64,000 nt of DNA, from positions 124,001-188,000 of the forward strand of contig OZ025801.1 in assembly GCA_964019425.1 (NCBI GenBank). Reading direction: 5' to 3'. Made by a program: the position numbers and the translations under genes. Positions 1-59,311 of this stretch are shown in pieces. The DNA comes from Flectonema sp. DT1601. Taxonomy: Eukaryota. How positions within the stretch are numbered: position 1 is the stretch's first letter; every line of letters starts with the position of its first letter. Below the pieces are notes generated by a model. It did not search any database, was not told the DNA's origin, and saw only the letters and a program-made list of their open reading frames with translations.

Positions 1-1714
1 AATGTCGCAATTTTTTTGAATTTTAGCTGCATTTTTTTGAATCGCAGCGGGAATGAAATCAGCGGTGCAAAAGCGATTAAAATAGGTATTCGGTTTTAAG
101 TTTTACTCCCTATTTTCACCCATGAAATACTGGAACCCTAAAATGGACGGTTATTTTTGGAATGACTAATATATCAGTCATTCCTTTTTTTTGCGAACAA
201 ATTCTGGACACTGAAAAAAAATTTCAAAAAAAAATTGTAAAAATTTCGATCGAAGCGGCATTTTAATGCGCTGCATCGTTGGGTTCATTTCCGTCCGAAA
301 TCGGGAGGTTGGCATCACATACTTGTCTCCCGAATTGAGAAAAGAGATTTTGCGGTTTACTAAATCAGCTCAGCCGTGGACAAGTACCAAAACTAAAAAT
401 TAATCGAAGGGTCTAATTTTACACTGCTGGCCCAGCGGGATCCAGAGAAAAAATAATCGAGCAAAAATATATTAAAGAGTACTAAGCATGTGCCGGTGAG
501 GCAGATTGTTACTACCTGTCTTTTTGGACCTACTTTGATACTTAATGATCATTATCACCACCACAGATGCAACATTTTCCTTACATAATTGCTACTAGGT
601 TGATTTGTTAGTAAAAAGGTGCATATCTCTTGAGTGCGGGAGAAGGGGGAAAAAATAGTAAAAAAAAAAAAATTAGGGGTGTTTTTTACTCAGATTTTCT
701 CGATCTTTCCATTCCAGGTCTGGGATTAATATTTATCATTGAGTAGTACCAAGGAAATTTTGCAAAGAGACGTTTATCTCTTTTTAGCAGCACTTACCAT
801 GTTTAAAAGTATATCCCTATGCCTAATTTTACAGATCGCACCCTCCCCGATTCCAAAAAATAAAAAATCGAGCAAAAGTAACATATCGTGTAACCTTGCT
901 CAGGCGGTGAGAAAAAGGTGTTTTTTGTTCGCAAAAAAAAGGAATGGCTGATATATATAAATAAAAAAACAAAGAGCGGCGTCCCAACTGACCGCACAGA
1001 CTCGACCACAGAAACCCGAAGGATAAGTAGTTCCCGGTGCCATGGGATGCTCGCGCCATACCCAGCGGTCAATGGACCGTGGACTTCGGTTCAATTGCGC
1101 TCAGCACGCGGATGGATAGATGTTCCGGGCTTTCTGCAGGTAGTCTTGTGGCTGTTGGCCCCTCTTCTCAACTGTGGCGGAAGCTCTGCACCACTACAAT
1201 TCTCGAATAACAGCTCTCACTTGGGACCGGAGACACTCGTACACCATTACAGAACGCTGCCCCCGTACACACATGGCTCAGAACCGCCGACAGGGCATCC
1301 GATACCACCTACAGCGGACACGCCACATGATTGGACGCCGGGCCCACAGTGGCAAACAATCTGGAGAACGACACCGGAAGGAATGATACACCCGTCGGAG
1401 CCACCCCTTCATCACGAGATGAGGGCCTTGACGACCAGACCGAGTCACCGCGTGAACCGGAAACGGGTCAAGAGATGGGAACGATGGCTGCGGAAGCTCT
1501 CGAGGGAACGCCAGACGAGACCCAAGCCGAAGAAACCACGGTATGCGGGCCTCGAGACTTCGCAGGAGGTGCTGACACTCCGGAATGCCCGCCGTGCTGA
1601 CGCTCCGGAGTGTCCGCCGAACCCACTACGAGCCTCACAACTCCACTACACAAAGCCGGAGAGCCGAGAGAGCTCGAACCAGTGCCGGCGCAGGCCCCGT
1701 TACCGACCACGACT

Positions 1715-3859
1715 TGTTAAAAGAAAACAGGTAACTTTACATGAGCATCGGCTCGAACGGCTCTGGCGAAGCGAGTGAACGAGTCTGATTGCTGAGTATT
1801 GTATTCTGTTTTCTTGTTCTTTTTTTAATTTATTTCAAACAGGGCAACAGGGGGAAAGTTTGGTTTGTATCCCCTGGGTGTTTAGCGTCACCTGTTGAGG
1901 TGTAATGTATTCTGTTTACTTCTATCCCTTTGTTTTTTTTTTTTTTTTTTTTATTTCAAACAGGACAGCAGGGGGAAAGTTTGTTTCGTACCCCCCGGGT
2001 GCTTAGCGTCACCCTCCATGCGATGACCTGAGCTGGCATCGCCAGAATATTTAACTTCACATGGCAATGTCAGCTCGTGAAGGGATCCAGTTGGATCAAA
2101 GGTTTTCTCCCCCCCACTCTATTTATCGTCATTGGTGCGCACCTTCGAACAGGAAGGCCAACACTGACGGAATTTTTTACTTCTCTTCCCAGGGTTGAAC
2201 CTTGGGAAAAAAACAAACAATAAACACAGTGTAGACAAACACCCGCCGGACATCTGCAGAGCAGCGATCGATGTCGATGTCTTCGTTGTCGAACTTCCTG
2301 GCGTTTATGTTTTTGTTTTTAACAACAACACAACACCAACTAACAGGTTTGTCTCATTGCCCGTTCTTTCTTGTTTCCCTTTGCCGCCGGAAGAACGAAG
2401 GTCGACGGAGGTCCGAAGCATTGCTTGCGATGATGTTCCGGTATGTGTTGCGTCTCTGTTATTTGTTTGTTTCAACTCAATTGGTTCATCTCAGGTTTTA
2501 GAAGTCTTCGTCCTGTTCGTTGGGAAGGGCCTGAATCAAAAGTTCACTGCCCCTATTCCTCTCCCAAATTTCTTATTCAGCTTGCCACATGACTGTGTGA
2601 CATTATTGCTACATTGTAGCTCCCCTACAAAAACCTTATTTTTTGCAGTTGTCTTTTGGTTGTAGCAACTTTTATTTTATGCTTTTCTAATGTCCCAAAG
2701 TTGGTTTATTTTACTTTTTTTTTTCTGCAAGGGAACAGTCCAAAGCATAAGTCCGAACAGCCCTAAGGCCAGTGAACGCACTGATTGTTAGGTATTGTAT
2801 TCCAGGGAAAGTTTGGTTTGTATACTTTATTTTTATTTTATTTTATTTAATTTGTTAAAAGAAAACAGGTAACTTTACATGAGCATCGGCTCGAACGGCT
2901 CTGGCGAAGCGAGTGAACGAGTCTGATTGCTGAGTATTGTATTCTGTTTTCTTGTTCTTTTTTTAATTTATTTCAAACAGGGCAACAGGGGGAAAGTTTG
3001 GTTTGTATCCCCTGGGTGTTTAGCGTCACCTGTTGAGGTGTAATGTATTCTGTTTACTTCTATCCCTTTGTTTTTTTTTTTTTTTTTTTTATTTCAAACA
3101 GGACAGCAGGGGGAAAGTTTGTTTCGTACCCCCCGGGTGCTTAGCGTCACCCTCCATGCGATGCTTGCGCAGGGAGAGCCAAGGGTCGAGAACCCTGGAG
3201 ATTACCTTTATTTCTTTTTGTGACTGGATTGCAGTGGCGCAACCCATCACCCCACCTGTTGGTATCTTTTTATTTTTTTTATTTAAAGAAAAAAGCAGGC
3301 TAAGTCGCCTGAGCTGGCATCGCCAGAATATTTAACTTCACATGGCAATGTCAGCTCGTGAAGGGATCCAGTTGGATCAAAGGTTTTCTCCCCCCCACTC
3401 TATTTATCGTCATTGGTGCGCACCTTCGAACAGGAAGGCCAACACTGACGGAATTTTTTACTTCTCTTCCCAGGGTTGAACCTTGGGAAAAAAACAAACA
3501 ATAAACACAGTGTAGACAAACACCCGCCGGACATCTGCAGAGCAGCGATCGATGTCGATGTCTTCGTTGTCGAACTTCCTGGCGTTTATGTTTTTGTTTT
3601 TAACAACAACACAACACCAACTAACAGGTTTGTCTCATTGCCCGTTCTTTCTTGTTTCCCTTTGCCGCCGGAAGAACGAAGGTCGACGGAGGTCCGAAGC
3701 ATTGCTTGCGATGATGTTCCGGTATGTGTTGCGTCTCTGTTATTTGTTTGTTTCAACTCAATTGGTTCATCTCAGGTTTTAGAAGTCTTCGTCCTGTTCG
3801 TTGGGAAGGGCCTGAATCAAAAGTTCACTGCCCCTATTCCTCTCCCAAATTTCTTATTC
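1715..3859 (+). mobile_element. Family 1 non-coding element: 5' partial copy (1715-2579) plus full ~1281-bp unit (2580-3859), ending in a CAAAA-loop hairpin
   Basis: Near-identical direct repeats offset by 1281 bp (ORF track 2195 vs 3476). Inserted at ACGAC|TGACG of the host ORF with no TSD. The first copy lacks the segment at ~3165-3307. Confidence 0.8.
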
Positions 3860-3893
3860 TGACGACGAAGGATCCGACCCGACAGCCACACCA

Positions 3894-5560
3894 GTGTCCG
3901 CACCGACGGCATCCTTACCAGCTGGAGGGAGAAACGAGAAAACATCGACTGAACCAGCCACCGCTGCCCCGACCCCTCCTGGCCCAACCATATCCATCGC
4001 CGGAGGTTTAGGGATATCGGAGCCTGTGCCGAGTCCGTCGACTAGTCCGCAAAGATTGCCCGCAGAACCCGCTACGAGTGCCGCAATTCCATTACACAAA
4101 GACGGAGAGCCGTGTGAGTACGAATCAACACCAGTGCCGACCCCGTTACCGTACACGACTGACGACGGAGGACCCGACCCGACAGCCACACCAGTGTCCG
4201 CTCCAGCTGCCTCCTTGCCAGCCGTTGGACCGAACGAGTTCACGTTGCACGTTCCAGCCACCGCTGCCCCGACCCCTCCTGGCCCAACCACATCCATCGC
4301 CGGAGGTTTAGAGGTATCGGAGCCCGGGCTGAGACTGCCACTCAACAGACCTCTAGAAGCGCCGGTTGATCCGGCATCAGCTGTAGACGTAACTTCCTCG
4401 CCAGCCGCTAAACGAACCGAGACGGATCAGACCGCTCCAGTCACCGCTGTCCCTACTCCTCCGGGCCCAACCATATCCATTGCCGGAAGTTTAGAGTTAC
4501 CGGAGCCGGAGCCGAGACCGTCTTTTCGCCCGCAAGGAGCGCCGTTTGAACCCACAATGGAAACAAGCAATCCTTCACTGCCAATAGGCGGACGGAATGT
4601 ATTCATATTGATCGACCCAGCCGCTGCTGTCCCTATGCCCCCTGGCCCTTCCAAATCCACTGCCGGAGGTTTAGAGATATCGGAGACCGGACTGAGGCCG
4701 CATGAATCGCCCACTGATCCAATCGCTACGCACGGTGGAGAGATAACACCGAACGAAGACGCCCTGTCTGTTCCAGACTCTGCCGTCATGCACCTTCCTG
4801 GCCCAATAACAACTTCTGCCGGACGATGGCAGGAACCGGAGTCGGTCCCAGGTACGCCTTTGAACGCACAGAGAGGGCCGTCACTCACTTCGAAACCCGA
4901 GAGTCCAGCAATAGAACATCCTCCGACCTTCATACCCTTTGGAGTAGGCCTGGAGGGGATTCAGAATCTCGGGGATTCCTGCTACATGAATGCAGCGCTG
5001 CAGTGCCTATGCAAGGGCATGCCTCTTCCGGAATGCAACAAATTGCCGGAACACTCAGCAGACTGTGTCTTATGCACCCTGAGGGAGCTGTCAGAGCTGC
5101 TCGAAGCAATCGTTGAGGCGGGAGCTCCACCAGTCGACTTCGTGTCCACGGTAACGCAAATCCGCACGTGTCAAGTCTGTGAAGACATACACACGGTACG
5201 GTATAGAACGCCCATCCTCAGACTGGAACCTGACCAAAAGACAGCTACTGCCCTTGACGAAACGACGACAAGCCCGACAGACTTCATCTGCCCGAGTTGT
5301 AAATCGTGCTCAGCGGAGATCGTTACATCGGTAGACGAGCCAGCCCGTTCGCTGTTCCTTGGGTTCAAAGAGGGACATTTTGGAGATACCAAACCCGATG
5401 AAGTCATCCTTCCAGAATCCTTCATAGACAGACGCATCGAGCCGCCTCTACACCCTGACTGGAATGATCCAACACACCAGGTTTAACGAGGTCTCGGGGC
5501 ACTATGTGTCGTATACGACAAATGGAAGGGGGGGATGACTGAAACGGCGCCCTGTACCTG
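3894..5560 (+). pseudogene. Pro-rich repeats plus ubiquitin-specific protease (peptidase C19)-like domain, frameshifted
   Basis: Cys box GIQNLGDSCYMNAALQCL at ~4955-5010 and CxxC pairs. His box YTLTGMIQH...SGHYVSY lies in another frame at ~5449-5515. Confidence 0.75.
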
Positions 5561-5629
5561 AGACGAGAGCAGCTACCCTCCTCCACCCAGGATCCAAGAC
5601 GGATTTTAGCACCCTCCAACAGGAAGCCA

Positions 5630-6934
5630 TCTTTCTTCTACGGAGTCGCCGAAGGCAGATCCCCGGGAGTCTATACCACGTGGGAGGAAACGAAGAGGGA
5701 GGTGCACAAATACAGAGGCGCCGTCCACCAAAGATTCGTCCTCCGCGAGTCGGCCCAGCGATTTGTCGAGAGGTACAACCCACTATCAGGGGATACCAAA
5801 GTCGCTCCACCGCCGGGCAGCAGATGGTACGCAGTAGTCAGGGGCCAAAAGTCCGGTCTGTACGACTGCTGGCGCGAAGCGAGCTCGATGGTAAACGCGT
5901 TCACCAGAAGCCGGTACAAGGCCTTCAACTCGCGATTGGAAGCCTCTCTATACTGGTGGGACCACATGGCAGGGGGACCTCAACAGGACTCGCCTCGCAT
6001 GTGCCTATTCTTCGCCAGCCATAGGAACTTGAACACTGGGAGGACGGGGGCGGCCGCCTGCCTGTTGGACACGCAACTGCACAAGTTGACGGCCAGCTGG
6101 GGTGCGACGCTCGACACTGCAGACCTTGGGCTAGCCTCCTACTATGCTGCCCTCAAGGGGATACAGAAGATGAGTCAACAAGATAGAAATGCCACCTGGA
6201 GTTGCAGAGGAAATATGAACACGTGGAGTGCGACAACACGGACGGGACTGGCGGAGGCTGTGCCGGCCACATGGAGCTTCCTCAACACACCAAACGTCGC
6301 CAACAACTGTGCGCAGTTCAAGGCGGAAGAGGTGTCCTCTCGAGATTACTGCTCGCTGATGGACGTGTTGAGACGTACCTCAGAACTGGAAGGGGAGCTG
6401 GGATTACGGTTAGCCAAGAAACCGAGATCCCCAGATTCCGATTCGCAGGGAGAGTCTACCTCAGTCAAAAAACCAAAGGCTGAGGCAGACCATCCACCGC
6501 CTGCCATAGCCGACCCCGATAGAAGCCCAAAGCCATCGGCCAGTCCGAGGAGCAAGAAGCAGTGGTCCCCTGGTTCAGATTCGCAAGACGAGCCTGCATC
6601 AGTGAAAAAGCCGAAGACGTCCGCACCTGAAGTGGCCCGAGAAGACTCAGTGACTTCAGAAGGCCCCCCACTAGAAGATAACCAACGGAACCCGACGGTC
6701 ACGACGGAGATAGAAAGTGTAGCGCCGACCGCCTCACCTGTTGAAACCGCAGTTGCAACCAATGTCGGCCAGAGTAAGCCGGAGCCAAAGGAAACCGACA
6801 TCCCACCGCCGAATGCAAGTCAGGAATTGGAAGATGCCACGGCCCGCACCACACCAGTCACTAAACCGACAGACTTGCCCACCGAAGGCAGTCCCCTACC
6901 GTCAACCGGTCTAAGGACGATAGTTGCAACCATA
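5630..6934 (+). pseudogene. Two tandem RNase H1 N-terminal (caulimovirus viroplasmin-like) domains, a weak RNase H-like segment and a low-complexity tail
   Basis: FYGVAEGRSPGVYTTWEETKREVHKYRGAVHQRF (5636-5738) and WYAVVRGQKSGLYDCWREASSMVNAFTRSRYKAFNSRLEA both fit the YAVxxGxxxGVYxxW...V..Y.....K.F pattern. Confidence 0.75.
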
Positions 6935-7380
6935 CTGTAAAGGGAAATATTCTCGCGGGGAAATATTCTTGCGGGGAAATATTCTTGCGGGGAAATATTC
7001 TCGCGGATTTGGAGATTTTTTTTCAAACTCGCGGGTTTTTCCCCACAAGAATATTTCCCTGCCACAGAGGATTTTTGTGAAAGCCAGCCAGTTGATCAAG
7101 AATCTAAGAAATCTTTGTGCTTCCATCAAGTGTCAGGTAGAACAAAGCATTATTCTCCAAGCAAACACAATAAAAAACTACCATACTGCACAATAAAAAT
7201 AATTTTTACTGAAACTTTCCTTCATAGCACACATATTTTCTTCACAAAAAAGAACAAAAAAATGGCTAGAAAAAAAGTATGCTTGCAGGGAAATATTCCC
7301 GCGGGGAAATATTCTCGCGGATTCAGAAAAAATAATAAAAACTCGTGGGTTTTTCCCCACAAGAATATTTCCCTTTACAG
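6935..7380. mobile_element. MITE (446 bp) with 19-bp TIRs and TA target-site duplication (Tc1/mariner-pogo-like)
   Basis: TA|CTGTAAAGGGAAATATTCT ... AGAATATTTCCCTTTACAG|TA, with internal 17-bp GGGGAAATATTCTYGC subrepeats. Removing it restores the host reading frame. Confidence 0.9.
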
Positions 7381-7382
7381 TA

Positions 7383-7720
7383 GACCCGCCGGAGAAAGTT
7401 GAACACGATGCCTCCGAAGATCCAGTAAACACCCTCAAGGAAGAAGTATATGATGCCCCTGGAGTACGGACAGACACCCTAACCGGGGAAGTACGCGATG
7501 CCTCCGTAGAACCAGCGGATATCCTTACCGAAGTAGAACATGATGCCGCCGGAGAACTAGCAGACACCCTTGCTGAAGAAGTGCGCGATACCGCCGAACA
7601 ACCAGCAGACATCCTTACCGAAATAGAACAGGATGCCTCTGGAGAACTAGTGGACGCCCTCGACAATGAAGTGTGACACCTCTGAAGAACCAGTAGACAT
7701 CCTCACCAAGGAGGAACGCG
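7383..7720 (+). repeat. ~42-bp (14-aa) coding tandem repeat, acidic (EVEHDASEEPADILT-like)
   Basis: Repeated GAAGTA..CGATGCC..GAA..AGCAGAC units, in frame with ORF 5702 once the MITE is removed. Confidence 0.75.
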
Positions 7721-8692
7721 ACTTGTCCAGCCCATCATCGCAGTTACAAACATACGACAAGGAGACCCAGGATAGAAAAAAAAACAATGATAACATTGTT
7801 TATTCTTTTTTTTTTTTTTTTTTTTTTTTTAAATCCTTTTAATTATTTTAAAGAAAAAACAATCAGTTTAGCGTCTTGACCAGGACGGCAAATAGAAAGT
7901 AATCGACATAGTCGATCGATAAAAAAAACAATGATAACATTGTTTATTCCTTTTTTTTTTTTTTTTAATTCTTTTTATTTATTTTTAAAGAAAAAACAAT
8001 CAGTTTAGCGTCCTGACCAGGACGGAAAATAGAAAGTAATCGACATAGTCGATCGATAAAGAAACAATGATAACATTGTTTATTCTTTTTTTTTTTTTTT
8101 TTTTATTCTTTTTATTTATTTTAAAAAGAAAAAAAAATGGAAAATAGAAATTAGTCAACAAAGTCGAACGATAAAAAAAAACAATGATAACATTGTTTAT
8201 TCTTTTTTTTTATTTTTTTTATATTCTTTTTTATTAATTTTGAAAAAAAAACAATCAGTTTAGCGTCTTGACCAGGACGGAAAATAGAAAGTAATCGACA
8301 TAGTCGATCGATAAAAAAAAAACAATTGTGCGTTGATAGGCAAGGTGACCAACCTTGACATTCTTTCTTTTCTCTCCTGTTGTGACAAACACAAAATACA
8401 CACACAGCTTACAGTGTGTTCTTTGTGTATGTTTTCTTCAGGTGTGAGTAGTTTTTTTGTTCGTCCTGGTCAAGACGCTAAACTGATTGTTTTTTTTTTT
8501 TTTCAAATTAATAAAAAAGAATAAAAAAAAAAAAAAAAAAAGAATAAACAATGTTATCATTGTTTTTTTTTTATCGTTCGACTTTGTCGACTAATTTCTA
8601 TTTTCCGTTTCTTTTCTTTAAAAAATAAATAAAAAGAATTTAAAATAAAAAAAAGAATAAACAATGTTATCATTGTTTTTTTATCGATCGAC

Positions 8693-9572
8693 TGAGTTGA
8701 ATTTACCAGGTGAGATTTGGACTGTTAGCTTTTGGCTAAGGCCCTCCCTGAAGAGCAAGAACAAAAAAACTACTCACACCTGAAGAAAACATACACAAAG
8801 AACACACTGTAAGCTGTGTGTGTATTTTGTGTTTGTCACAACAGGAGAGAAAAGAAAGAATGTCAAGGTTGGTCACCTTGCCTATCAACGCACAACATTG
8901 GTGGTCTCTACTAGACCCTGAGTGATCCCACTGGATCTCTCATCGTTCATAGTACCCTGTGTGAAGTTATTAAATCAAAGGTAAACTATGAACTACAAAT
9001 GACTTAGCCTGTTATTATAATGCCACAGGCAGGCCCTGCATTCAGCAACTATCCAGCAGTGCTTGGATGTCCTGATCTTCTTCTAAAAAAAAGAAAGAAA
9101 AACAAGACCCAGAAGTACTAAACTGCTTTCCTTCTTGCTGCCCAGGAGTTTCTGACCAGAACTAATAGAAAATAAAAAGTAGATGGGAAACAATAAAAAG
9201 TAAAATGGATATAACTGAAGTTAAACAAGACAAATGAAGTAACAGACCAGAACAGAAAGAGGATTGTAATAGAAGATTACAAATAAAAAAATGCAAGTAT
9301 CAACACATAATCAAGATACACCAGCAGCTAACAAACAACATAAAATTGAAGATCAGTTGCCAGAGTATTTCAACCATGGTAGAATACTCGCCCCTCTGGC
9401 AGGGATTATCCCAGACTTGTCCTTTAATCTAGTTGGACACCATGGCTTACAACCCTTCCAGAGGGAAGCACCATTATGACTTCTATTTTTTTTCTTCAAG
9501 AAAATCATAAGGTGGGAACAAAGAAAATGCTAAGAGGAACCCCTTATTAACACCTAAGACATCTAAACTGCA
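8693..9572 (-). mobile_element. Family 2 non-coding element, truncated copy (duplicate at 11142-12021)
   Basis: Matches 13678-14639 apart from one internal deletion. Its defined end, TGAGTTGAATT on +, is at 8693. Confidence 0.8.
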
Positions 9573-9976
9573 GAATTTCGATAAAGTGGGAAGTAACGGA
9601 CTGGGAGCTTTTGGCTCCTGCCCTATTCCCGATGGAAACTTTCTTTTTTTTTTTTTTTTTTTTAACAGGCCCAAAGGGCGACAATGATGGTTGCTGACCA
9701 AGGAATAATATTCAAATGAATTTTCGTTTCAAAGAAACGAACAGAATTAAGAGAGAGGCAGAGAAAAAAAAAAAAAAAGAAAGAAAAGAAAAAAAAATAT
9801 GAAGAGGAAATAATCAAACATGAAAAAATAAAAAAAAGAAAAAATAAAATATAAATAAAAAACGTTGTATGAAAAAGGGAAAAAAAGAAAAAAAAAAAAA
9901 AAAAAAAGACCAGAAAAGGAAAGAGAAAATGAAAAGGTATAATATTATTGTGGGGATATGAGGATAGCAGGGAAAT

Positions 9977-10011
<35 letters not shown>

Positions 10012-10775
10012 TTATTATTTAAAAAAAAAAGGAAACAATCAGTTTAGCGTCTCGATCAGGACGGAAAATAGAAATTAATCGACATAGTCGATCGATAGAA
10101 AAAAACAATGATAACATTGTTTATTCTTTTTTTTTTTTTTTTTTTTTAAATCCTTTTAATTATTTTAAAGAAAAAACAATCAGTTAAGCGTCTTGACCAG
10201 GACGGAAAATAGAAATTAATCGACATAGTCGATCGATAAAAAAAAAAAACAATGATAACATTGTTTATTCTTTTTTTTTAATTTTTTTTATTTTTTTTTT
10301 TTTTTTTTATTAATTTTGAAAAAAAAAAACAATCAGTTTAGCGTCTTGACCAGGACGGAAGATAGAAAGTGATCGACATAGTCGATCGATAAAAAAACAA
10401 TGATAACATTGTTTATTCTTTTTTTTTTTATTTTAAATTCTTTTTATTTATTTTTTAAAGAAAAAAAAAACGGAAAATAGAAATTAGTCGACAAAGTCGA
10501 ACGATAAAAAAAACAATGATAACATTGTTTATTCTTTTTTTTTTTTTTTTTTTATTCTTTTTATTTATTTTAAAAAGAAAAAAAAATGGAAAATAGAAAT
10601 TAGTCAACAAAGTCGAACGATAAAAAAAAACAATGATAACATTGTTTATTCTTTTTTTTTATTTTTTTTATATTCTTTTTTATTAATTTTGAAAAAAAAA
10701 CAATCAGTTTAGCGTCTTGACCAGGACGGAAAATAGAAAGTAATCGACATAGTCGATCGATAAAAAAAAAACAAT
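9573..10775 (-). mobile_element. Family 3 element (terminal hairpin, ~400-bp A/T-rich segment, satellite array); duplicate at 12022-13280
   Basis: Reverse complement of ~15500-16645. Begins on + at GAATTTCGATAAAGTGGG. Confidence 0.75.
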
Positions 10776-12425
10776 TGTGCGTTGATAGGCAAGGTGACCA
10801 ACCTTGACATTCTTTCTTTTCTCTCCTGTTGTGACAAACACAAAATACACACACAGCTTACAGTGTGTTCTTTGTGTATGTTTTCTTCAGGTGTGAGTAG
10901 TTTTTTTGTTCGTCCTGGTCAAGACGCTAAACTGATTGTTTTTTTTTTTTTTCAAATTAATAAAAAAGAATAAAAAAAAAAAAAAAAAAAGAATAAACAA
11001 TGTTATCATTGTTTTTTTTTTATCGTTCGACTTTGTCGACTAATTTCTATTTTCCGTTTCTTTTCTTTAAAAAATAAATAAAAAGAATTTAAAATAAAAA
11101 AAAGAATAAACAATGTTATCATTGTTTTTTTATCGATCGACTGAGTTGAATTTACCAGGTGAGATTTGGACTGTTAGCTTTTGGCTAAGGCCCTCCCTGA
11201 AGAGCAAGAACAAAAAAACTACTCACACCTGAAGAAAACATACACAAAGAACACACTGTAAGCTGTGTGTGTATTTTGTGTTTGTCACAACAGGAGAGAA
11301 AAGAAAGAATGTCAAGGTTGGTCACCTTGCCTATCAACGCACAACATTGGTGGTCTCTACTAGACCCTGAGTGATCCCACTGGATCTCTCATCGTTCATA
11401 GTACCCTGTGTGAAGTTATTAAATCAAAGGTAAACTATGAACTACAAATGACTTAGCCTGTTATTATAATGCCACAGGCAGGCCCTGCATTCAGCAACTA
11501 TCCAGCAGTGCTTGGATGTCCTGATCTTCTTCTAAAAAAAAGAAAGAAAAACAAGACCCAGAAGTACTAAACTGCTTTCCTTCTTGCTGCCCAGGAGTTT
11601 CTGACCAGAACTAATAGAAAATAAAAAGTAGATGGGAAACAATAAAAAGTAAAATGGATATAACTGAAGTTAAACAAGACAAATGAAGTAACAGACCAGA
11701 ACAGAAAGAGGATTGTAATAGAAGATTACAAATAAAAAAATGCAAGTATCAACACATAATCAAGATACACCAGCAGCTAACAAACAACATAAAATTGAAG
11801 ATCAGTTGCCAGAGTATTTCAACCATGGTAGAATACTCGCCCCTCTGGCAGGGATTATCCCAGACTTGTCCTTTAATCTAGTTGGACACCATGGCTTACA
11901 ACCCTTCCAGAGGGAAGCACCATTATGACTTCTATTTTTTTTCTTCAAGAAAATCATAAGGTGGGAACAAAGAAAATGCTAAGAGGAACCCCTTATTAAC
12001 ACCTAAGACATCTAAACTGCAGAATTTCGATAAAGTGGGAAGTAACGGACTGGGAGCTTTTGGCTCCTGCCCTATTCCCGATGGAAACTTTCTTTTTTTT
12101 TTTTTTTTTTTTAACAGGCCCAAAGGGCGACAATGATGGTTGCTGACCAAGGAATAATATTCAAATGAATTTTCGTTTCAAAGAAACGAACAGAATTAAG
12201 AGAGAGGCAGAGAAAAAAAAAAAAAAAGAAAGAAAAGAAAAAAAAATATGAAGAGGAAATAATCAAACATGAAAAAATAAAAAAAAGAAAAAATAAAATA
12301 TAAATAAAAAACGTTGTATGAAAAAGGGAAAAAAAGAAAAAAAAAAAAAAAAAAAAGACCAGAAAAGGAAAGAGAAAATGAAAAGGTATAATATTATTGT
12401 GGGGATATGAGGATAGCAGGGAAAT

Positions 12426-12460
<35 letters not shown>

Positions 12461-22272: not shown

Positions 22273-22512
22273 TTTATTTTTTAAAGAAAAAAAAACGGAA
22301 AATAAATTGTTAATACTACTTCTCTTTAATCCAGCTCTTGTTACAGTTTCATGTGGTTGCTGAACTATTCTAGCACAGGTGGGTTGATAGGCATGTGTGG
22401 TGATCGTTGAAGTGGTGGTGCTTGTTAATCCTATCGTTCTCTAAAGTTTATTGTGGTAAGGCATTCACATGGCTCTCGTAAGAGTAACAGTGCAACTTCG
22501 CGATTCCTTGCA

Positions 22513-25500
22513 TTACCAGGTGAGATTTGGACAGTTAGCTTTTGGCTAAGGCCCTCCCTGAAGAGCAAGAACAAAAAAACTACTCACACCTGAAGAAAAC
22601 ATACACAAAGAACACACTGTAAGCTGTGTGTGTATTTTGTGTTTGTCACAACAGGAGAGAAAAGAAAGAATGTCAAGGTTGGTCACCTTGCCTATCAACG
22701 CACAACATTGGTGGTCTCTACTAGACCCTGAGTGATCCCACTGGATCTCTCATCGTTCATAGTACCTATGTGAAGTTATAAAATCAAAGGTAAACTATGA
22801 ACTACAAATGACTTAGCCTGTTATTATAATGCCACAGGCAGGCCCTGCATTCAGCAACTATCCAGCAGTGCTTGGATGTCCTGATCTTCTTCTAAAAAAA
22901 AGAAAGAAAAACAAAACTGTAGCTGGGATCACTCAGGATCAACAGACTACCAATGCTACCTGTTGTACTTGCTCACTATGGGGGGTGATGCCAAACACCC
23001 AGAAGTACTTAACTGCTTTCCTTCTTGCTGCCCAGGAGTTTCTGACCAGAACTAATAGAAAATAAAAAGTAGATGGGAAACAATAAAAAGTAAAATGCAT
23101 ATAACTGAAGTTAAACAAGATAAATGAAGTAACAGACCAGAACAGTAATTGTAGTAAAAGATAACAAATAAACAAATGCAAGTATCAACACATGATTTAA
23201 TTACACCAGCAGCTAATATATCTTTTCTTTTTATTCCCTATCTGTTCTGGTCTGTTGCTTCATTTGTCTTGTTTAACTTCAGTTATATCCATTTTACTTT
23301 TTATTGTTTCCCATCTACTTTTTATTTTCTATTAGTTCTGGTCAGAAACCCCTGGGCAGCAAGAAGGAAAGCAGTTAAGTACTTCTGGGTGTTTGGCATC
23401 ACCCCCCATAGTGAGCAAGTACAACAGGTAGCATTGGTAGTCTGTTGATCCTGAGTGATCCCAGCTACAGTTTTGTTTTTCTTTCTTTTTTCTAGAAGAA
23501 GATCAGGACATCCTAGCACTGCTGGATAGTTGCTGAATGCAGGGCCTGCCTGTGGCATTATAATAACAGGCTAAGTCATTTGTAGTTCATAGTTTACCTT
23601 TGATTTTATAACTTCACATAGGTACTATGAACGATGAGAGATCCAGTGGGATCACTCAGGGTCTAGTAGAGACCACCAATGTTGTGCGTTGATAGGCAAG
23701 GTGACCAACCTTGACATTCTTTCTTTTCTCTCCTGTTGTGACAAACACAAAATACACACACAGCTTACAGTGTGTTCTTTGTGTATGTTTTCTTCAGGTG
23801 TGAGTAGTTTTTCTGTTCTTGCTCTTCAGGGAGGGCCTTAGCCAAAAGCTAACTGTCCAAATCTCACCTGGTAATTCAACTCAGTCCTTGTCAGTTTTGA
23901 CATCAAACCTGTAATGGTTTAATCATTACAGGTTATTTACTGAAATATTTGTTCTAAAAGTTGCTAAGTATTTCTCACTTAGAAATTTTTTATTTTTTTA
24001 TTTTCAGCTTAATTAGCTACGAATTGTTTCTACTAAGTGTTTCTCACTTAGATTTTTTTTTTGCTTTTCAGCTCCTTAAAAGCTGCTAAGTGTTTCTGCT
24101 AAGTGTTTCTCACTTAGAATTTTATTGTTATGTTCGTTTTCTATCCCCTCTTCTATCCCTTTTGTTCAAAAAAAGCGATGAGAAATTTCTCTCATTCATG
24201 CTAAGATGCACTCTGAACTTTGGTTTTTTGATCTGAGTGTGAGGGAATGACCTGTTAGTGCATTGGGCATAAGCTGGGCTGCAGTTAAGATGTCTTAGGT
24301 GTTAATAGGGGGTTCCTCTTAGCATTTTTCTTTGTTCCCACCTTATGATTTTCTTGAAGAAAAAAAATAGAAGTCATAATGGTGCTTCCCTCTGGAAGGG
24401 TTGTAAGCCATGGTGTCCAACTAAATTAAAGGACAAGTCTGGGATAATCCCTGCCAGAGGGGCGAGTATTCTACCATGGTTGAAATACTCTGGCAACTGA
24501 TCTTCAATTTTATGTTGTTTGTTAGCTGCTGGTGTAATTTAATCATGTGTTGATACTTGCATTTTTTTATTTGTTATCTTTTGCTACAATAACTCTTGCC
24601 TATATCTTTTCTTTTTATTCCCTATCTGTTATGGTCTGTTACTTCATTTGTCTTGTTTAACTTCAGTTATATCCATTTTACTTTTTATTGTTTCCCATCT
24701 ACTTTTTATTTTCTATTAGTTCTGGTCAGAAACCCCTGGGCAGCAAGAAGGAAAGCAGTTTAGTACTTCTGGGTGTTTGGCATCACCCCCCATAGTGAGC
24801 AAGTACAACAGGTAGCATTGGTAGTCTGTTGATCCTGAGTGATCCTAGCTACAGTTTTGTTTTTCTTTCTTTTTTTTTAGAAGAAGATCAGGACTTCCAA
24901 GCACTGCTGGATAGTTGCTGAATGCAGGGCCTGCCTGTGGCATTATAATAACAGGCTAAGTCATTTGTAGTTCATAGTTTACCTTTGATTTTATAACTTC
25001 ACATAGGTACTATGAACGATGAGAGATCCAGTGGGATCACTCAGGGTCTAGTAGAGACCACCAATGTTGTGCGTTGATAGGCAAGGTGACCAACCTTGAC
25101 ATTCTTTCTTTTCTCTCCTGTTGTGACAAACACAAAATACACACACAGCTTACAGTGTGTTCTTTGTGTATGTTTTCTTCAGGTGTGAGTAGTTTTTCTG
25201 TTCTTGCTCTTCAGGGAGGGCCTTAGCCAAAAGCTAACTGTCCAAATCTCACCTGGTAATTCAACTCACACCAGCAGCTAACAAACAACATAAAATTGAA
25301 GATCAGTTGCCAGAGTATTTCAACCATGGTAGAATACTCGCCCCTCTGGCAGGGATTATCCCAGACTTGTCCTTTAATTTAGTTGGACACCATGGCTTAC
25401 AACCCTTCCAGAGGGAAGCACCATTATGACTTCTATTTTTTTTCTTCAAGAAAATCATAAGGTGGGAACAAAGAAAAATGCTAAGAGGAACCCCTTATTA

Positions 25501-39689: not shown

Positions 39690-39884
39690 TTCCCCAAGTT
39701 TCGATGCCGTAGTCGTACATCCATTGGGGAAAAAAAAAAAAAAAAAAAAAAAACCATTAGAGTGTTAGGTTCGTTCGAAGTACCTCCTGTTCGATTCCTG
39801 GTCATCGGCTGCTGTATCTCCGAAAGTAGAATTTTATTTTCTATCGATAGTTCAAAATAGGCTACTTTCTATGATCTCGGGGTT

Positions 39885-40082
39885 AGTGCCGTGAGAGCCA
39901 AAAGTGCATCTCTCGATCCTGAGACGGCATCGTTTACAGTAGTGGACTACGACGGTATCTGATCATCTTCGATCCCCACACTCTCGTTCTTGATTAATGA
40001 ACACATTCTTGTCGAATGCTTTCGCAGAAGTTCGTCTTCCCACGATCTAAGAATTTCACCTCTGACGTGGGAGTCCCTAATT
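39885..40082 (-). rRNA. SSU (18S) rRNA fragment, non-functional
   Basis: Minus strand reads GTCAGAGGTGAAATTCTTAGA...TGCGAAAGCATT...ATTAATCAAGAACGA...GATCAGATACCGTCGTAGTC...TAAACGATGCCG. Confidence 0.95.
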
Positions 40083-43538: not shown

Positions 43539-43876
43539 AATTATAATAACTGAACTGAGGGATTGCCTTCACACAGACAATGAGAGCTGCAGACGGCTAC
43601 CTGAATAACTTACTCTCAACAATGTGATTGTTTGAGAAGACTCTACTCATGGAAGTGAATTACTTAAATGAGACAGGACGCTGTTTTTAATTTGACTGCC
43701 GAAAAGTAAAAAAATCGTTTCGTATGCTCCCCGAGAAGTTCTTCATTTGATTTGATGTTGTTGTTTTACTTCATTTCTCACAGATAACATTTATATGAAA
43801 TACGAAGAGAAGAATTCCTTATCCAATCTCACTCTTTTCTATTAATTTATAATCACCCCCACTAACAGTACTCGAG

Positions 43877-46800
43877 ATGGACAAGGGTCTACCACCTGTG
43901 CCGGATTCCATAAATGGAATAAATGGTAGCGTCGGTGGGGGTGGTGGTGGTGAGTGCTCTGTCACGGTAGCCGTTCGAATCCGTCCCTTAAATAAAACAG
44001 AGAAGAGTAAGAACACTCCGATCATTCTTAATGTCATGTCAGAAGTATCAACTGTCGTACTTGGACCTAAAACCAATAATCCACATCGATTCACTTTTGA
44101 CTACACCTGGGACTCCATGGATTCTGAAGACGATTGCTATGCTTCTCAAGAAACCGTTTATAACGACATCGGAAAGAAGGTACTCAGAGCAGCCTTTCAA
44201 GGTTACAATGCTTGTATCTTTGCTTATGGTCAAACTGGTTCAGGAAAGACCTACTGCATGATGGGTGATCCTGACTGTCCTGTTCAACAAGGGGTAATCC
44301 CAAGACTTTGTAAAGACGTGTTCAACAAAATAAACGACGGATCTCCACCTCCAGCAGGTGTCAACAGCATCAGCTACAAAATAGAAGCTTCTTACCTCGA
44401 GATTTATCAAGAGACGGTGAGGTGTTTGTTAAATCCAAAGAAAGATAATTTAAAAGTAAGAGAACATCCAACAACAGGACCGTACATTGAAGACTTAACT
44501 AAATTAGTAATTAATGACTACAAGGACATCATAAGACTAATGGACGATGGTAATAAAGTTAGAACTGTTGCTGAGACAAACATGAACGACAAGTCGAGCA
44601 GATCTCACGCGATATTTCAAATAACATTAACGCAGACGAGATTGTATTCTAAAAACGTATCTCACGATAACGTATCGAAGATTAATCTTGTCGACTTAGC
44701 TGGTTCTGAAAGAGCTAAAAGTACTGGAGCAACAGGAACTAGATTACAAGAGGGAGCTGATATTAATAAATCACTTCTAACTCTAGGATTAGTAATCAAA
44801 GGACTTGCTGAGAACAGTACCAGTAAAAGGAGAGGAGGAAACCTTCAACATGTTAACTTTCGTGATTCTAAACTAACCTGGTTACTTAAAGATAACTTAG
44901 GAGGGAATAGTAAAACTTTTATGATCAGCACATTATCACCTGCTGAACTATACCACGATGAGACGCTATCAACTCTTAGATACGCTGACAGAGCGAAGAG
45001 TATTGTAACTAAGGCGATGGTTGTCGAGGATCCAAACATGAAATTAATTAGACAACTGAGAGAGGAACTCGCAAAGTATAAATGTAAACTTCAAAATTTT
45101 GAAGACAAGTACAGCGGCCTTCCTCCTCCAGCCCCGACAATACCAACTCTACCAAGTGATCACGCACCTCTTAGAATGGTTGAGGGGATGTTAGTCACTC
45201 CAAGAGGTGAGTTAGGTGGAGATCCCTTAGCGACTCCGAGAATCCCTCGCAATCAAAAGGAAGCTCGTGATCTTCATGAACGTATTGAGGCGATGACTAA
45301 ATTACTGGGAGAAGCTGGAATGAGTTGGGAAGAAAAAGAAGAAAAGACTCGTCAAGAAGAACAGTCACGTCAGGAAACGATGGAGACGATGGGGATCAGT
45401 AGTAGAGTTGTAATCGAAGCAAAGCTTCCTCATTTTATAAATCAGATTCCTGACGGAGGATGGGTCGTTCAATACATCACAGCAGGTGAGAAGATGACGA
45501 TTGGATCGTCTGATACTTCTGATATGATTTTAGAAGAACAGGGCTGCCTACCTAATCATGCTATTGTTTGGACTTCATCAGAGGGTGTCACGTACATTGA
45601 ACCAGTTAGTAGAGAAGCTAGCAGTCTGTTACTTGTTCATATTTATAACGATGACGGTGAAGTCGTTCAAGCAGCAGCCTCCCCTCCTGGCTCTCCAGGA
45701 GGACCAAAAGCTTCTGAATTCGATTCGTCGACTTTAAGAACAGTGTTATCACACGGAGCGTCTGTTGAAGTCGGTGAAAATAATTTTAGATTTGTTGATC
45801 CGAATGTCAGCGCTTCAGAAAGAGCTCGAAAGAAGGAACAACATCGATCGTTTTTAAGAGCAGCGAGAGACGGTTCCAGAGAACACTGCGATCAGACTCT
45901 CGGAGGGAAACCTCCTCAGCCACCTCCTCAGGCAGCTCCTCAGGCAGTCGATGAATCTGAGATCCGAAGACAGATCAGAACTGAAATCCTTCAGGAGGAG
46001 AAGAATCAAAAGATTCCACTCCTTCAACTCAATGAGGTTCAATCACAGTCCAGACTACTTCGACTCGGCTCTGCCCGCGTCCTTCGATCCGCAAAAAGCG
46101 CTTCCTCCCTTCGATCATCACGTGGCAATGAACCGATTGTCCAACTCTTCAAACACACAATCCTATTTGTTGGTCCTGAAGGTAGTGGTAAGTCGAGTGT
46201 TATTAAATGTTTAACTACAGAACCTTCCATATGGGGAAGGAAAGATGTTCCCTCAGGAGTTACAAAAACTGTTGGAGTCGACCACACGGAAATTCAAACG
46301 AGTCTCAGCGGAACACAAGTTGTGTTACTTTTACAAGACTTGTCTGGAAGTAAAGTGTACGAGTCGATGGCTTCCTTTTCTGTATCCGCTAATAGAAGTG
46401 TTGTGGTCCTCACTTGGGATATGTCCAGAAAGTTTGATCGAACAGAAATACTTGCCTGGGTTGAGACCATCATATCACAATCACCTGGTTCACCTGTAGT
46501 AGTGTTGGGAACTCATCGAGACAACTGTCGAGAAACTGATGAAGGGATAAAAGATTTACTTTACAACGTTCAGTCTTTACTATTAAATACACTCAACGAC
46601 AAGGGAATCCGTCACGGAGGTCAACTACTTGGAACCTATGCCGTGAGTTGTAAGACTCGTCACGTACTTTCAATTCCACTGAGTGGTGAGCCTGGAAATA
46701 CTAATCGCAGTTCGAACAGTCCAAGACTTAGTCCAAGACTTAGTCCCAGACGTACTCCTCGATCTGGGGGAAGTTTTAAAAAAATGAAATTTCGGGAACT

Positions 46801-48361
46801 GCTCTCCGTCCTGTCGCAGATTGCTTATGAGAGATGTCGAGCTCATCCGTATTTCCCAAATGGGAATATCCCTTCATCAATACTGACTGCTGCTAAGAAG
46901 ATAAATGACCTCCGATCTAATGGAGTTTATTGTATTACTTCTTCACAATATAAATCGATACTCGTATTAGCTGATCAGAAGTACAGCGATACTAAAGAGT
47001 TAAAAAGAGCAACAGGACTACTACATTCATGGGGTGTTCTCCATCACTTTGACAAGTGTCCAAAGCTTCGTGACACTATCTACACTGATCCAAGATGGTT
47101 GTACGACTTGATGCACATTCTCCCCAGTTGTGTTCATTTCCAACAATTGGGAGCAGAGTCCGTTCGAAAACATAAAAACATTCGCTTTGCTTTCAACCTC
47201 GCAGATGCTCAACAAAAAGATGTCGGAAACCTCCTCTCAAAAGGCATTCTAACGATTCCTCTTGCGATGACTCTTTTTAAGAATTCTCTTTCTTTAATTA
47301 AGAAGACCCCTCAGGAAGTAATGCTTTGTCTTTCTTTATTAATGAACCTTGATATCCTATACCCAATTATACCACCGACAGAAGGATCGATATCCCCAAC
47401 AACTTCACTGGAGACTGTTGTTGAAGAAGAACGTAAGGAGGATGTAATCTACCTCTCACCTTCTTTCTTTACTCATCCGTTTCCTGGTGTTCTGGTGGAC
47501 GTGATGCCATGTCTGATGTCAGGTATTCGTAAAAGGTTTATATTCAAACCGTCGCTTCCAAAAAATGTTTTCAGCAGACTGCTAACCAGAACTGCTAAAT
47601 GTGTGAAAAGACTTTTTATTGGAAAGGTTGACTTGATGAAGCAAAGAAGAAATTCTGGATTTTCCCTACCCAGTAATTCATTTTGGAAGAATGGTGCCTG
47701 GGTTCAAGATTCTTTGACGACGAGGGCTTTGCTATGGAGCGGTCCCAGCGATGAGATTCACCTTTGTTCAAACATTCCATCATCGGGACCAACACCTTCA
47801 AGAGAGTTAATAGATGGAGTGACTAGAGCACTGTATACACTTGTTGATGAATATAAAGGTGTTTCTATTACTGAAATGTTACCTTGTCCTACTTCTGAAT
47901 GTTTGTCATGGTTGAGCTGTGGCTCACCATCTGAGGCAATTTCATGTCCGGGTTGTGGTCGTGAAATACAACCGTCTGAGTTGGACGGAGCTAATGTCAG
48001 CGCATTCAAAACAGATCAAAAGAATGAAGTGTTACAACACTGCGGTAATCCAGAACTACTTGGTCCTCTGTTAGATAAGTTAGAAATGGATACTGTTCAT
48101 GAACCAAACGACTCTGATGTTCAAGAAGGTAAATCTATTATCGAAGAAATCCTCCGAAGCGAAGGTTGCAATCGCATTGACCGAACTCGCACTCTCGTCA
48201 ACAAAATAGAAGAAATGGAATCAAACAATCTGACTGAGGCTGCAACTCGTCTGGAATGGGCAATGCAAGTCGTAAACACTCAGGAGAAATTAATTGCATC
48301 CGCTAAGGCGCTTGACGAGGTTGTGGAGTTACTAACAAGTCCTCCACCACCACCTCAATAA
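43877..48361 (+). CDS. Kinesin-3-like motor, FHA-like domain, Roc GTPase and COR domain fusion (1494 aa)
   Basis: Motor motifs FAYGQTGSGKT, SSRSH and LVDLAGSER. FHA-like region at ~45420-45800. Roc motifs GPEGSGKS, TVGVD, DLSG, GTHRD and VSCKT. COR-like LHSWGVLHHF..DPRWL and FSRLL..FWKNG. Confidence 0.9.
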   Translation: MDKGLPPVPDSINGINGSVGGGGGGECSVTVAVRIRPLNKTEKSKNTPIILNVMSEVSTVVLGPKTNNPHRFTFDYTWDSMDSEDDCYASQETVYNDIGKKVLRAAFQGYNACIFAYGQTGSGKTYCMMGDPDCPVQQGVIPRLCKDVFNKINDGSPPPAGVNSISYKIEASYLEIYQETVRCLLNPKKDNLKVREHPTTGPYIEDLTKLVINDYKDIIRLMDDGNKVRTVAETNMNDKSSRSHAIFQITLTQTRLYSKNVSHDNVSKINLVDLAGSERAKSTGATGTRLQEGADINKSLLTLGLVIKGLAENSTSKRRGGNLQHVNFRDSKLTWLLKDNLGGNSKTFMISTLSPAELYHDETLSTLRYADRAKSIVTKAMVVEDPNMKLIRQLREELAKYKCKLQNFEDKYSGLPPPAPTIPTLPSDHAPLRMVEGMLVTPRGELGGDPLATPRIPRNQKEARDLHERIEAMTKLLGEAGMSWEEKEEKTRQEEQSRQETMETMGISSRVVIEAKLPHFINQIPDGGWVVQYITAGEKMTIGSSDTSDMILEEQGCLPNHAIVWTSSEGVTYIEPVSREASSLLLVHIYNDDGEVVQAAASPPGSPGGPKASEFDSSTLRTVLSHGASVEVGENNFRFVDPNVSASERARKKEQHRSFLRAARDGSREHCDQTLGGKPPQPPPQAAPQAVDESEIRRQIRTEILQEEKNQKIPLLQLNEVQSQSRLLRLGSARVLRSAKSASSLRSSRGNEPIVQLFKHTILFVGPEGSGKSSVIKCLTTEPSIWGRKDVPSGVTKTVGVDHTEIQTSLSGTQVVLLLQDLSGSKVYESMASFSVSANRSVVVLTWDMSRKFDRTEILAWVETIISQSPGSPVVVLGTHRDNCRETDEGIKDLLYNVQSLLLNTLNDKGIRHGGQLLGTYAVSCKTRHVLSIPLSGEPGNTNRSSNSPRLSPRLSPRRTPRSGGSFKKMKFRELLSVLSQIAYERCRAHPYFPNGNIPSSILTAAKKINDLRSNGVYCITSSQYKSILVLADQKYSDTKELKRATGLLHSWGVLHHFDKCPKLRDTIYTDPRWLYDLMHILPSCVHFQQLGAESVRKHKNIRFAFNLADAQQKDVGNLLSKGILTIPLAMTLFKNSLSLIKKTPQEVMLCLSLLMNLDILYPIIPPTEGSISPTTSLETVVEEERKEDVIYLSPSFFTHPFPGVLVDVMPCLMSGIRKRFIFKPSLPKNVFSRLLTRTAKCVKRLFIGKVDLMKQRRNSGFSLPSNSFWKNGAWVQDSLTTRALLWSGPSDEIHLCSNIPSSGPTPSRELIDGVTRALYTLVDEYKGVSITEMLPCPTSECLSWLSCGSPSEAISCPGCGREIQPSELDGANVSAFKTDQKNEVLQHCGNPELLGPLLDKLEMDTVHEPNDSDVQEGKSIIEEILRSEGCNRIDRTRTLVNKIEEMESNNLTEAATRLEWAMQVVNTQEKLIASAKALDEVVELLTSPPPPPQ

Positions 48362-57928: not shown

Positions 57929-59311
57929 GATACTTTTTATAACGCTTCTAATTCTTATTATTAGCTTCCTGTAAAGATGTTCTTAAAGGGGAGACTATGA
58001 AGTACTCGACTTGACCACGTGGCCAGCATCTGTACCAACTAATGATTATCTGAGGGTTGGTTTCTTCACTGCGCTGATGATTGCTTTTATCTTTTTTTTT
58101 TTTTTTTTTACTTTTCCCCCCACTCCCCTCTTCCCTATTTTTTTAGTTTTGACCAGTTTCAAGTTTCTTTATATTTTAAGTGGTCTTGACACGAAGTTAC
58201 ACGAAGCGGTCGGCACGAGTAAAGGTTTTCTTCATATTCGTTGGCCGATGAACTTTATCAAACAATTTCAGTTGTTCGTTTTCTTTTCCCTTTTTTAAGA
58301 AATTTAATTAACGGAAGAACGTAATTGAACCTTCCAGCCGAAGCTAAACACGATCTCCGTGATTGGGTCAGTCATCAGTTCTGGACTTGCTAACTAATTT
58401 TATTTATTTTTGATAGCCCCGCTAATATAACTCAATAAGAGCTCAGGTTTTTGTGATTACGAAACTGGGTACCTGTAAGCCTGGTGTAACCCCCTTTTTT
58501 TCCCCTCCTTTTTTTTTTTTTAAAATGCAACACGTTATATGTAATCTTCGTTATTTCTTATTCTCCTTTCACACACACCCCCCCAAAAAAAAAAAAAAAA
58601 AAAAAGAAAAATGGAAAAAGATGAACAGGTTGTCCTTTTTCCCAACACGCTGTTTTTTTGTCTTTTTTTCTGTTTAACTTTTGGGTATCTTTTTGTATAA
58701 TACAGCCGACACTGTATGCTGCTTGTTGAAGATTCCTGTTTCTAGTCTGTTTTTAGCACCTGTAGTTCCCCCTTTACCCTGTTGCTTGTTGTGTTGCCAG
58801 CATTGCAGCAATTCATGTAAAAGATTCCGTCGGGCATCTTTTTTTTTTTTTTTTTGTTTTTTGTAATTTCCCTCGTTCCTCAAAACAAAACCCTCCCCAG
58901 AAGTGCCGTATCAAAAATCTACTACGAAAAAAAAAAAAAAAAAAATTAAAAAAATAAAAATAACGGGCTTGTCACGACCCAGCTCGAGTAGGCGAGTAAT
59001 GTAGCAGCATTCCCTCCTTCAGAGCATTGTATTCATGAGTTGTGAGTTTTATGGGGTCAGTTTTTTGTGAATAATCTTTTTGTTTACCTCCCTTACAGAA
59101 CAGTGAACAATAACATTGAAAAAGAGATGTGTTTGTAACTATAATTATTATAATGAAAAGTTCTTTTTTTTTTACAAAGTTTGAATAACTGAATGTCGAC
59201 AACCTAATATATTGACGACTCAGAAATTCAAAATTTTGACGGATTCCTTGAAGTTGACAAATTGTATTATTTTCCCCCCTTTTATTTTTCAGGTCCGTTT
59301 TTTTAAAAAAG

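Follow-up and report, generated by a model that had tools for sequence, protein, structure and literature searches.

Three non-coding repeat families of Flectonema sp. DT1601 share a terminal CAAAA-loop hairpin and resemble passengers of a Penelope-like reverse transcriptase

A nest of repeats in the genome of Flectonema sp. DT1601 raises the question of why repeat families without coding capacity should end in one and the same small hairpin, and what moves them. We analysed a window of 64,000 nucleotides (contig OZ025801.1 of assembly GCA_964019425.1, positions 124,001 to 188,000), in which three non-coding families, here numbered 1 to 3, terminate in a 26-nt hairpin with a CAAAA loop. The hairpin is genuine, and it is highly probable that the families are mobilised by some target-primed reverse transcriptase (RT). 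To the narrower reading, in which they are non-autonomous retroelements of the Penelope-like element (PLE) type whose 3′ hairpin recruits or positions a partner RT, we give about even credence. They are not a categorically new system.

Scanning the window for the pattern GGGC-N6-CAAAA-N7-GYCC revealed 12 matches, all exact, on the plus strand at 2527, 3808, 16595, 16655, 23833 and 25218 and on the minus strand at 8744, 9623, 11193, 12072, 13729 and 22554; 0.15 would be expected by chance, and none of 100 shuffles reached 12. All nine hairpin pairs are kept across ten aligned ends (90 of 90 cells paired, against 26-47% in slid controls), three of them having changed on both sides and two on one side while four are invariant, and both one-sided changes are G-U on the hairpin strand. 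The hairpin with its outer stem is present in the minimum-free-energy folds of all three families, the whole-end folding z-scores being modest (-0.09 to -2.65). Folding of the family 2 hairpin with DNA parameters kept the upper stem and lost the lower one. A covariance model (R1) run over the window with filters off recovered the same 12 copies at 61-81 bits, and the next score was only 14.8 bits, indicating that the window holds no fourth family. These copies represent three sequence types only, on which the covariation rests, and they are not independent, since a single duplication of 2449 bp accounts for the pairs 8744/11193 and 9623/12072, and every partial tandem adds two. A first-pass annotation, made from the letters alone, had placed twelve hairpins here, with an upper stem substituted under preserved pairing, G-U pairs confined to the hairpin strand and an outer stem pairing in every family; the first three statements were borne out, and the outer stem is likewise predicted in each family, in registers that differ.

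The hairpin marks a fixed 3′ end. Eleven of the 12 copies terminate at TC, 24-26 nt past the lower stem, a fixed end at TC being what the annotation had proposed for each family; the one at 22554 falls about 7 nt short. The family ends read TTATTC, CAACTC and AAATTC, are without poly(A), and are followed by flanks beginning with T, A or C. The upstream repeats start at varying points (unit position 274 in family 1, 209 and 718 in family 2), none of them at TG, and six variable 5′ starts have no motif in common, among themselves or with the fixed end. In families 1 and 2 a truncated copy stands head-to-tail before a full unit of 1.3-1.4 kb. The family 1 insertion (1714-3859, plus strand), which splits a Pro-rich repeat open reading frame (ORF) and has 0-1 nt of its target duplicated, consists of a 5′-truncated upstream copy resembling a pseudo-long terminal repeat (pseudo-LTR; 1714..2578, unit 274-585 and 730-1281, hairpin at 2527..2552) and a full unit of 1281 nt (2579..3859, hairpin at 3808..3833, element end at 3859), joined at a TC/AG junction at 2578/2579; the upstream copy is 100% identical to the unit downstream of it. 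The family 2 insertion on the plus strand likewise joins a truncated copy (23217..23883, unit 718 to end, hairpin at 23833-23858) through TC/AG (23882/23883) to a full unit of about 1385 nt (23884..25267, core at 24703-25151, hairpin at 25218-25243). It is flanked by a target duplication of 14 nt (23203..23216 and 25268..25281), or 13 nt if the final A is the element's own, and its intact target is present once, in another family 2 copy. The older family 2 copy that it split lies on the minus strand (22508..25526, as 22508-23216 plus 25268-25526; hairpin at 22529-22554). Target duplications in the window thus amount to 13-14 nt once and 0-1 nt once, with a small deletion once. The longest open frame in the repeats has 137 aa and no Pfam match, in agreement with the annotation that they encode no protein.

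Further ends were found among 59 predicted proteins from the European Nucleotide Archive (ENA), which were gathered by a search with a fragment in the window of a HERO-like long interspersed nuclear element (LINE) and by two further searches; they are query-selected gene models on contigs of different lengths, one of which may be this very locus. Twenty of the 59 include a translated family end, giving 21 ends in all with two three-residue matches excluded, and since they translate these very repeats, their source is the same or a nearly identical organism. Among the 12 ends of family 1, six read through into the start of the unit; of the 15 remaining family ends, 13 diverge within about 3 nt of the fixed end (P0041 and P0035, which vary in sequence and were assessed by eye, are among them), and two are 7-12 nt short. 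The junction translations show the end fixed in this same way at about 15 further places. The ends reach at most 1-4 nt into a next unit, with a minor class 7-12 nt short. The family 2 unit was partly matched by 16 of 20 listed sequencing runs from 12 studies, in small shares that we do not count as evidence, and with no RNA run among those listed they carry no evidence on expression. Of four runs examined for family 2, three gave contigs and two break at 23882-23884; the depth of the 3′ half exceeded that of the 5′ half in two runs (17 vs 9.8 and 6.0 vs 2.8). Contig breaks and roughly twofold 3′ depth hint weakly at these partial tandems. One contig (run X11, record 5, matching 24980-25259) holds the family 2 3′ region, 585 other letters and the core again, and is possibly a shorter or different unit.

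The remaining copies lie between 8 and 17 kb and are nested. A second family 2 partial tandem (13284..14826, minus strand) contains unit 209 to the end (hairpin at 13704-13729) and then unit 1-392. Family 3 has inserted into this tandem, which runs from 14826 to 11142 (insertion at 12022..13283, minus strand; T-rich satellite plus a 415-nt body, hairpin at 12047-12072), and a few target bases were lost there and none duplicated; the remainder of the interrupted unit (11142..12021, minus strand, 394 to the end with an internal deletion) carries the hairpin at 11168-11193. The second copy of the 2449-bp segmental duplication (8326..10774, minus strand) includes family 3 (hairpin at 9598-9623) and family 2 (hairpin at 8719-8744). 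A further family 3 copy (14827..16645, plus strand; satellite 14828-16236, body 16231-16645, hairpin at 16595-16620) stands head-to-head with family 2 at 14826/14827, and a second head-to-head 5′ junction lies at 10774/10775, duplicated at 8325/8326; both join different families, inside a nest of many events. Fused behind the exact 3′ end of family 3 (16645/16646) are the terminal 60 nt of family 2 (16646..16704, plus strand, hairpin at 16655-16680). In each of the two independent family 3 copies the 5′ part is a T-rich satellite of 115/140 nt; the whole family 3 unit is not visible here. The satellite itself occupies 7777-19795 in both orientations, in 115/140-nt units with a 255-nt higher order and three small palindromes per long unit, and in the predicted proteins it adjoins truncated HERO-like ORFs.

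The annotation had called the three families unrelated, with bodies of no visible similarity. For families 1 and 2 this has to be corrected: nhmmer aligned family 2 positions 794-1269 to family 1 3053-3514 on the same strand (E 2.2e-11; reciprocal 1.3e-9), and the best local alignment of the two outscored each of 186 natural control windows and all except 1-2 of 500 shuffles; an exact-word chain test, a cruder measure, did not reach significance (51 of 500 shuffles). By their sequences, families 1 and 2 descend from one ancestor, and the hairpin is therefore best read as a conserved inherited signal rather than as convergence. The unique 415-nt body of family 3 showed no similarity to family 1 or 2. 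The shared core of about 450 nt (3053..3514 on the plus strand in family 1) consists of four ordered blocks: A (3105-3151), two adjacent stems, the first with three of its five pairs changed on both sides; B (3296), an identical 11-mer; C (3333), a 10-mer lying in a long hairpin's loop; and D (3365), a small hairpin. Save for two one-mismatch matches to the 10-mer of C, the blocks are confined to families 1 and 2. The loop of the second block A stem has six possible pairs with block B in all three variants, the changes being only wobble-compatible, and this pseudoknot between A and B is a prediction. In the whole-core consensus fold family 2 dominates and many pairs are broken, so that it does not settle the predicted global fold. 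In itself, the core is a candidate for a structured RNA of no assigned class.

Searches for relatives of hairpin and core gave little. At gathering level, Rfam matched only a small-subunit (SSU) rRNA fragment in the window, leaving the hairpin without a match; at E up to 5 there were four weak unrelated matches and no ribozyme per unit of families 1 and 2, and around family 3 a large-subunit (LSU) rRNA fragment and six weak matches. No hammerhead core with proper stems was found in the family 1 or 2 unit, junction included, by core-motif scan. To our knowledge, and judged by eye, there is no consistent fit to twister, twister-sister, pistol, hatchet or hepatitis delta virus (HDV)-like ribozymes, nor to group II domain V, the U6 internal stem-loop, RNase P or Pol III boxes. 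The hairpin pattern occurred at 31 loci in viral collections, none with all five upper pairs, and at 19 loci in metagenomes of the Joint Genome Institute (JGI), one with five pairs and none similar to the window; the best covariance-model score was 30.8 bits among 36 of 50 preselected viral and metagenome loci. Five contigs of one metagenome assembly (L035 at 833-859, L043, L045, L048 and L049) carry a different structured repeat of about 65 nt that fits the pattern by chance and has no Rfam family at gathering level. Core patterns met no viral and 106 prokaryotic loci, and nhmmer with the three families against 156 viral, metagenome and prokaryotic loci returned no match at E 0.1. The HERO-like protein had no match in the metagenome contigs. 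A word search with the family 1 open frame found no longer relative, five of its six representatives being translations of family 1 itself, and a protein atlas comparison offered generic coiled-coil and RNase H N-terminal leads only. No published description of the hairpin was found in the literature searched, which did not include Repbase, Dfam or the supplementary figures of PMC11167929.

Variable 5′ ends, a fixed 3′ end and target duplication are the marks of target-primed reverse transcription, and the occurrence here of all three, with a duplication of 13-14 bp, is what argues for that mode of mobilisation. Partial tandems at about half of the ends, putative inverted 5′ partners, a target duplication in some cases and none in others, and missing poly(A) match the descriptions of PLEs in particular. 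PLE insertions are reported as highly 5′-truncated, forming partial tandems and often with an inverted truncated copy alongside (PMC8557442), and the Penelopes of A. vaga as duplicating 8-10 bp or nothing, as joined head-to-head and as mobilised in trans by pseudo-LTRs (pLTRs) (PMC3846280). The RT of Anolis Poseidon is described as initiating within a tandem transcript, at an AC-rich stem loop with two adjacent sites and without need of hammerhead cleavage (PMC11167929), which suggests that the hairpin here may position a PLE-type RT on read-through RNA. Under this model, a tandem locus would be transcribed across its junction from a promoter in the upstream copy, and the CAAAA hairpin would bind a partner reverse transcriptase-endonuclease, with copying starting about 25 nt downstream. 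The partner would nick target DNA, start inside the read-through RNA at the TC/AG junction, copy one whole unit, pass the next junction and stop at a variable point, leaving a partial tandem; the core of about 450 nt may be a second cis module, either a promoter or a protein-binding fold. We infer one enzyme for all three families, on account of the hairpin they have in common and the fusions of family 3 with family 2. A terminal structure read in trans, as the annotation proposed, thus fits the evidence and is probably correct, its single mobilising enzyme being a deduction with no enzyme found, and of its candidates the Penelope-like one fits best, given the partial tandems, 5′ truncation, 13-14-bp duplication and head-to-head junctions.

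Several points weigh against a PLE-type partner. Neither the window nor the other searches made yielded a PLE RT or a GIY-YIG gene, the only RT remnant in the window is the piece of a LINE with restriction-like endonuclease (RLE), HERO-like, at 27549-27996, and no report of PLEs from euglenozoans was found in the texts and supplements searched. The window shows only one clear target duplication and no tandem junction for family 3, and the 30-40-bp tail of the PLE type, optional in the PLE description, is absent from the family ends. Some of the junctions in predicted proteins could be predicted splice sites, and a single assembly is probably the source of them; the contigs across the family 2 junction have about 28 letters on one side, below a 31-letter rule. 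PLE membership cannot be granted without the partner; the elements appear to work like non-autonomous PLEs.

It is possible, if unlikely, that the families are instead passengers similar to short interspersed nuclear elements (SINEs), served by a LINE with either an RLE (HERO-like) or an apurinic endonuclease (APE), with the hairpin as an RT-bound 3′ stem-loop and the tandems formed by end-to-end template jumps. LINE RTs recognise 3′ stem-loops, a 13-14-bp duplication suits LINEs, a HERO-like fragment 75% identical to a family with clusters of 235 and 47 members sits in the same nest, and family ends are often fused to the HERO-like ORF. These fusions, however, occur in both orientations and at many positions, as for insertions into HERO-like DNA, in a HERO-selected sample; among the predicted proteins, whose predicted exons may skip it, none translates a hairpin downstream of an intact HERO-like ORF end; the ends carry neither poly(A) nor a short-repeat tail; and about half of the 3′ ends lead on into a unit start, which resembles PLEs and not LINEs. 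Retrozyme-like RNAs, in which an unknown self-cleaving fold cuts UC/AG, the monomers form circles and these are copied more than once by a borrowed RT, are improbable. The TC/AG junction is exact in both families 1 and 2, the 450-nt core is conserved and partly covarying with a block A loop able to pair with block B in three variants, and retrozymes are described as tandem non-coding PLE derivatives (bioRxiv 10.64898/2026.07.22.740005). The failure to match a hammerhead or any Rfam ribozyme speaks against this and leaves the ribozyme option of the annotation without a known family; the units are long, and internal initiation accounts for the fixed end without cleavage, though an unknown ribozyme could coexist with the PLE model. 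We also find it decidedly doubtful that a new class is involved, namely 1.3-1.4 kb hammerhead-free satellite-like RNAs, in a protist lineage from which Penelope elements are not described, whose pseudoknotted core of about 450 nt would be an undescribed ribozyme or large functional RNA processing the tandem transcript at UC/AG, with the CAAAA hairpin binding a new or deeply divergent RT.

Non-autonomous rolling-circle DNA transposons, the HUH option of the annotation, would have an HUH enzyme read a single-stranded DNA hairpin and nick at TC, read-through giving partial tandems. HUH enzymes often recognise DNA hairpins, two insertions in the window lack a duplication, and Replitron-1 is described with variable duplications and a subterminal palindrome (PMC10288648), but this origin is quite improbable in view of the one target duplication, the absence of a CTRR end, short terminal direct repeats or a common target dinucleotide, the six variable 5′ starts sharing no motif with the fixed end, the loss of the family 2 lower stem under DNA parameters, which keep only the upper one, and the lack of a Rep or helicase ORF among the window frames scanned. 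Ancestry alone explains the letters that the homologous families 1 and 2 share, and three sequence types with modest folding z-scores would also suit an inherited transcript 3′-end or host-protein signal that RNA production requires and an RT does not read, or a slowly changing relic. That all pairs are kept through two-sided changes while the flanks diverge, that family 3 has hairpin and spacing in common without detectable body similarity, and that a 60-nt piece of hairpin and end only (16646-16704) integrated by itself make such a signal very unlikely.

Compared with known systems, the PLE-type reading has its closest counterparts in the non-autonomous MRC1/Chlamys PLEs of Chlamydomonas reinhardtii, which are described as non-coding, head-to-tail, 5′-truncated elements with a partial-tandem pseudo-LTR, mostly without a canonical hammerhead; they differ in matching a known autonomous family at the 3′ end, where the partner here is only deduced, and no shared terminal hairpin is described for them, the words 'hairpin' and 'stem-loop' occurring 0 times in the main text (PMC8557442). 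Poseidon PAc of Anolis carolinensis, compared by description, shares the tandem organisation and copying from an internal stem loop, and its two start sites may be set beside the minor short-end class (PMC11167929). Animal non-LTR retrozymes are also non-coding tandem units and supposed PLE passengers, but each of those described has a type I hammerhead, whereas the units here are longer and conserve another fold (bioRxiv 10.64898/2026.07.22.740005); with no hammerhead in units or junction by core-motif scan and Rfam, our elements are not retrozymes. LINE-SINE pairs with a 3′ stem-loop in common and the trypanosomatid RIME, NARTc and SIDER resemble them as short, non-coding, trans-mobilised elements with target duplications, and the ingi derivatives differ in a conserved 77-nt 5′ signature and poly(A), in place of which we find a 3′ fold, no poly(A) and partial tandems (PMC12278014 for the trypanosomatid elements). 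A Pol III-type SINE is rejected, with 0 tRNA genes and no tRNA-, 5S- or 7SL-derived head in the units by Rfam. Replitrons and Helitrons share a subterminal hairpin and non-autonomous copies, and Replitron-1 variable duplications, yet short terminal direct repeats, an RG target, a fuzzy end or a CTRR end are missing here, and 5′ truncation with a partial tandem lies outside the Replitron description (PMC10288648). The ends TTATTC, CAACTC and AAATTC and the 13-14-bp duplication do not agree with a Helitron (5′ TC, 3′ CTRR, no duplication), nor do flanks of T, A or C without terminal direct repeats agree with the fixed target dinucleotide of a Replitron. Variable starts and the 13-14-nt duplication likewise exclude terminal-repeat retrotransposons in miniature (TRIM) and large retrotransposon derivatives (LARD), which have TG...CA LTRs, a primer site and 4-6-bp duplications.

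The window also contains a kinesin, a protein with leucine-rich repeats (LRR), a Mutator-like element (MULE) transposase and rRNA fragments. The repeat nest extends over 0.9-28.5 kb, and between 28.5 and 62.3 kb the long coding frames share one strand and show no evident introns, a layout resembling that described for Diplonema papillatum, with gene clusters parted by repeat regions and scattered 28S pieces (PMC10161547). On this resemblance we conjecture that the host is a euglenozoan. Within the nest, the family 1 insertion splits a GC-rich element (894-6940, plus strand) with Pro-rich repeats, two RNase H1 N-terminal domains and a weak UCH match below cut-off. A MULE with terminal inverted repeats (19795-22272, transposase ORF 20142-22043 on the minus strand) and a non-autonomous MULE copy (17089-18271) carrying a 28S rRNA fragment (about 17560-17990, minus strand) are both inserted in the T-rich satellite. 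The HERO-like RLE LINE fragment (27549-27996, plus strand) is 60-75% identical to P0001, which has RVT_1 and zf-RVT domains; its relatives are abundant, often 5′-truncated, and trailed by a conserved coiled-coil ORF that comes in two variants. Head-to-head with it lies a GC-rich segment (25527-27559) with an acidic frame on the minus strand and no Pfam match. Beyond the nest are an Ada/MGMT-like ORF (28571-29533, plus strand; PF01035, E 6e-32), which we take to be of bacterial appearance and possibly a gene transfer; an isolated SSU rRNA fragment outside an rDNA unit (39859-40082, minus strand); a kinesin motor fused to Roc and weak COR domains (43853-48361, plus strand); and a peptidase M64 domain fused to a tetraspanin-like C-terminus (59258-62260, plus strand).

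PLE reverse transcriptases are the closest relatives of telomerase, and how they choose template and start site is barely known, with one in vitro study pointing to an internal stem loop. Passenger families that have diverged and retain a single 26-nt hairpin, set at a constant spacing from the insertion end, amount to a natural mutagenesis of such a signal, and they supply a covariance model with which to look for the partner gene. If that partner is a PLE and the host a euglenozoan, the finding would extend PLEs to a lineage without reports in the literature searched.

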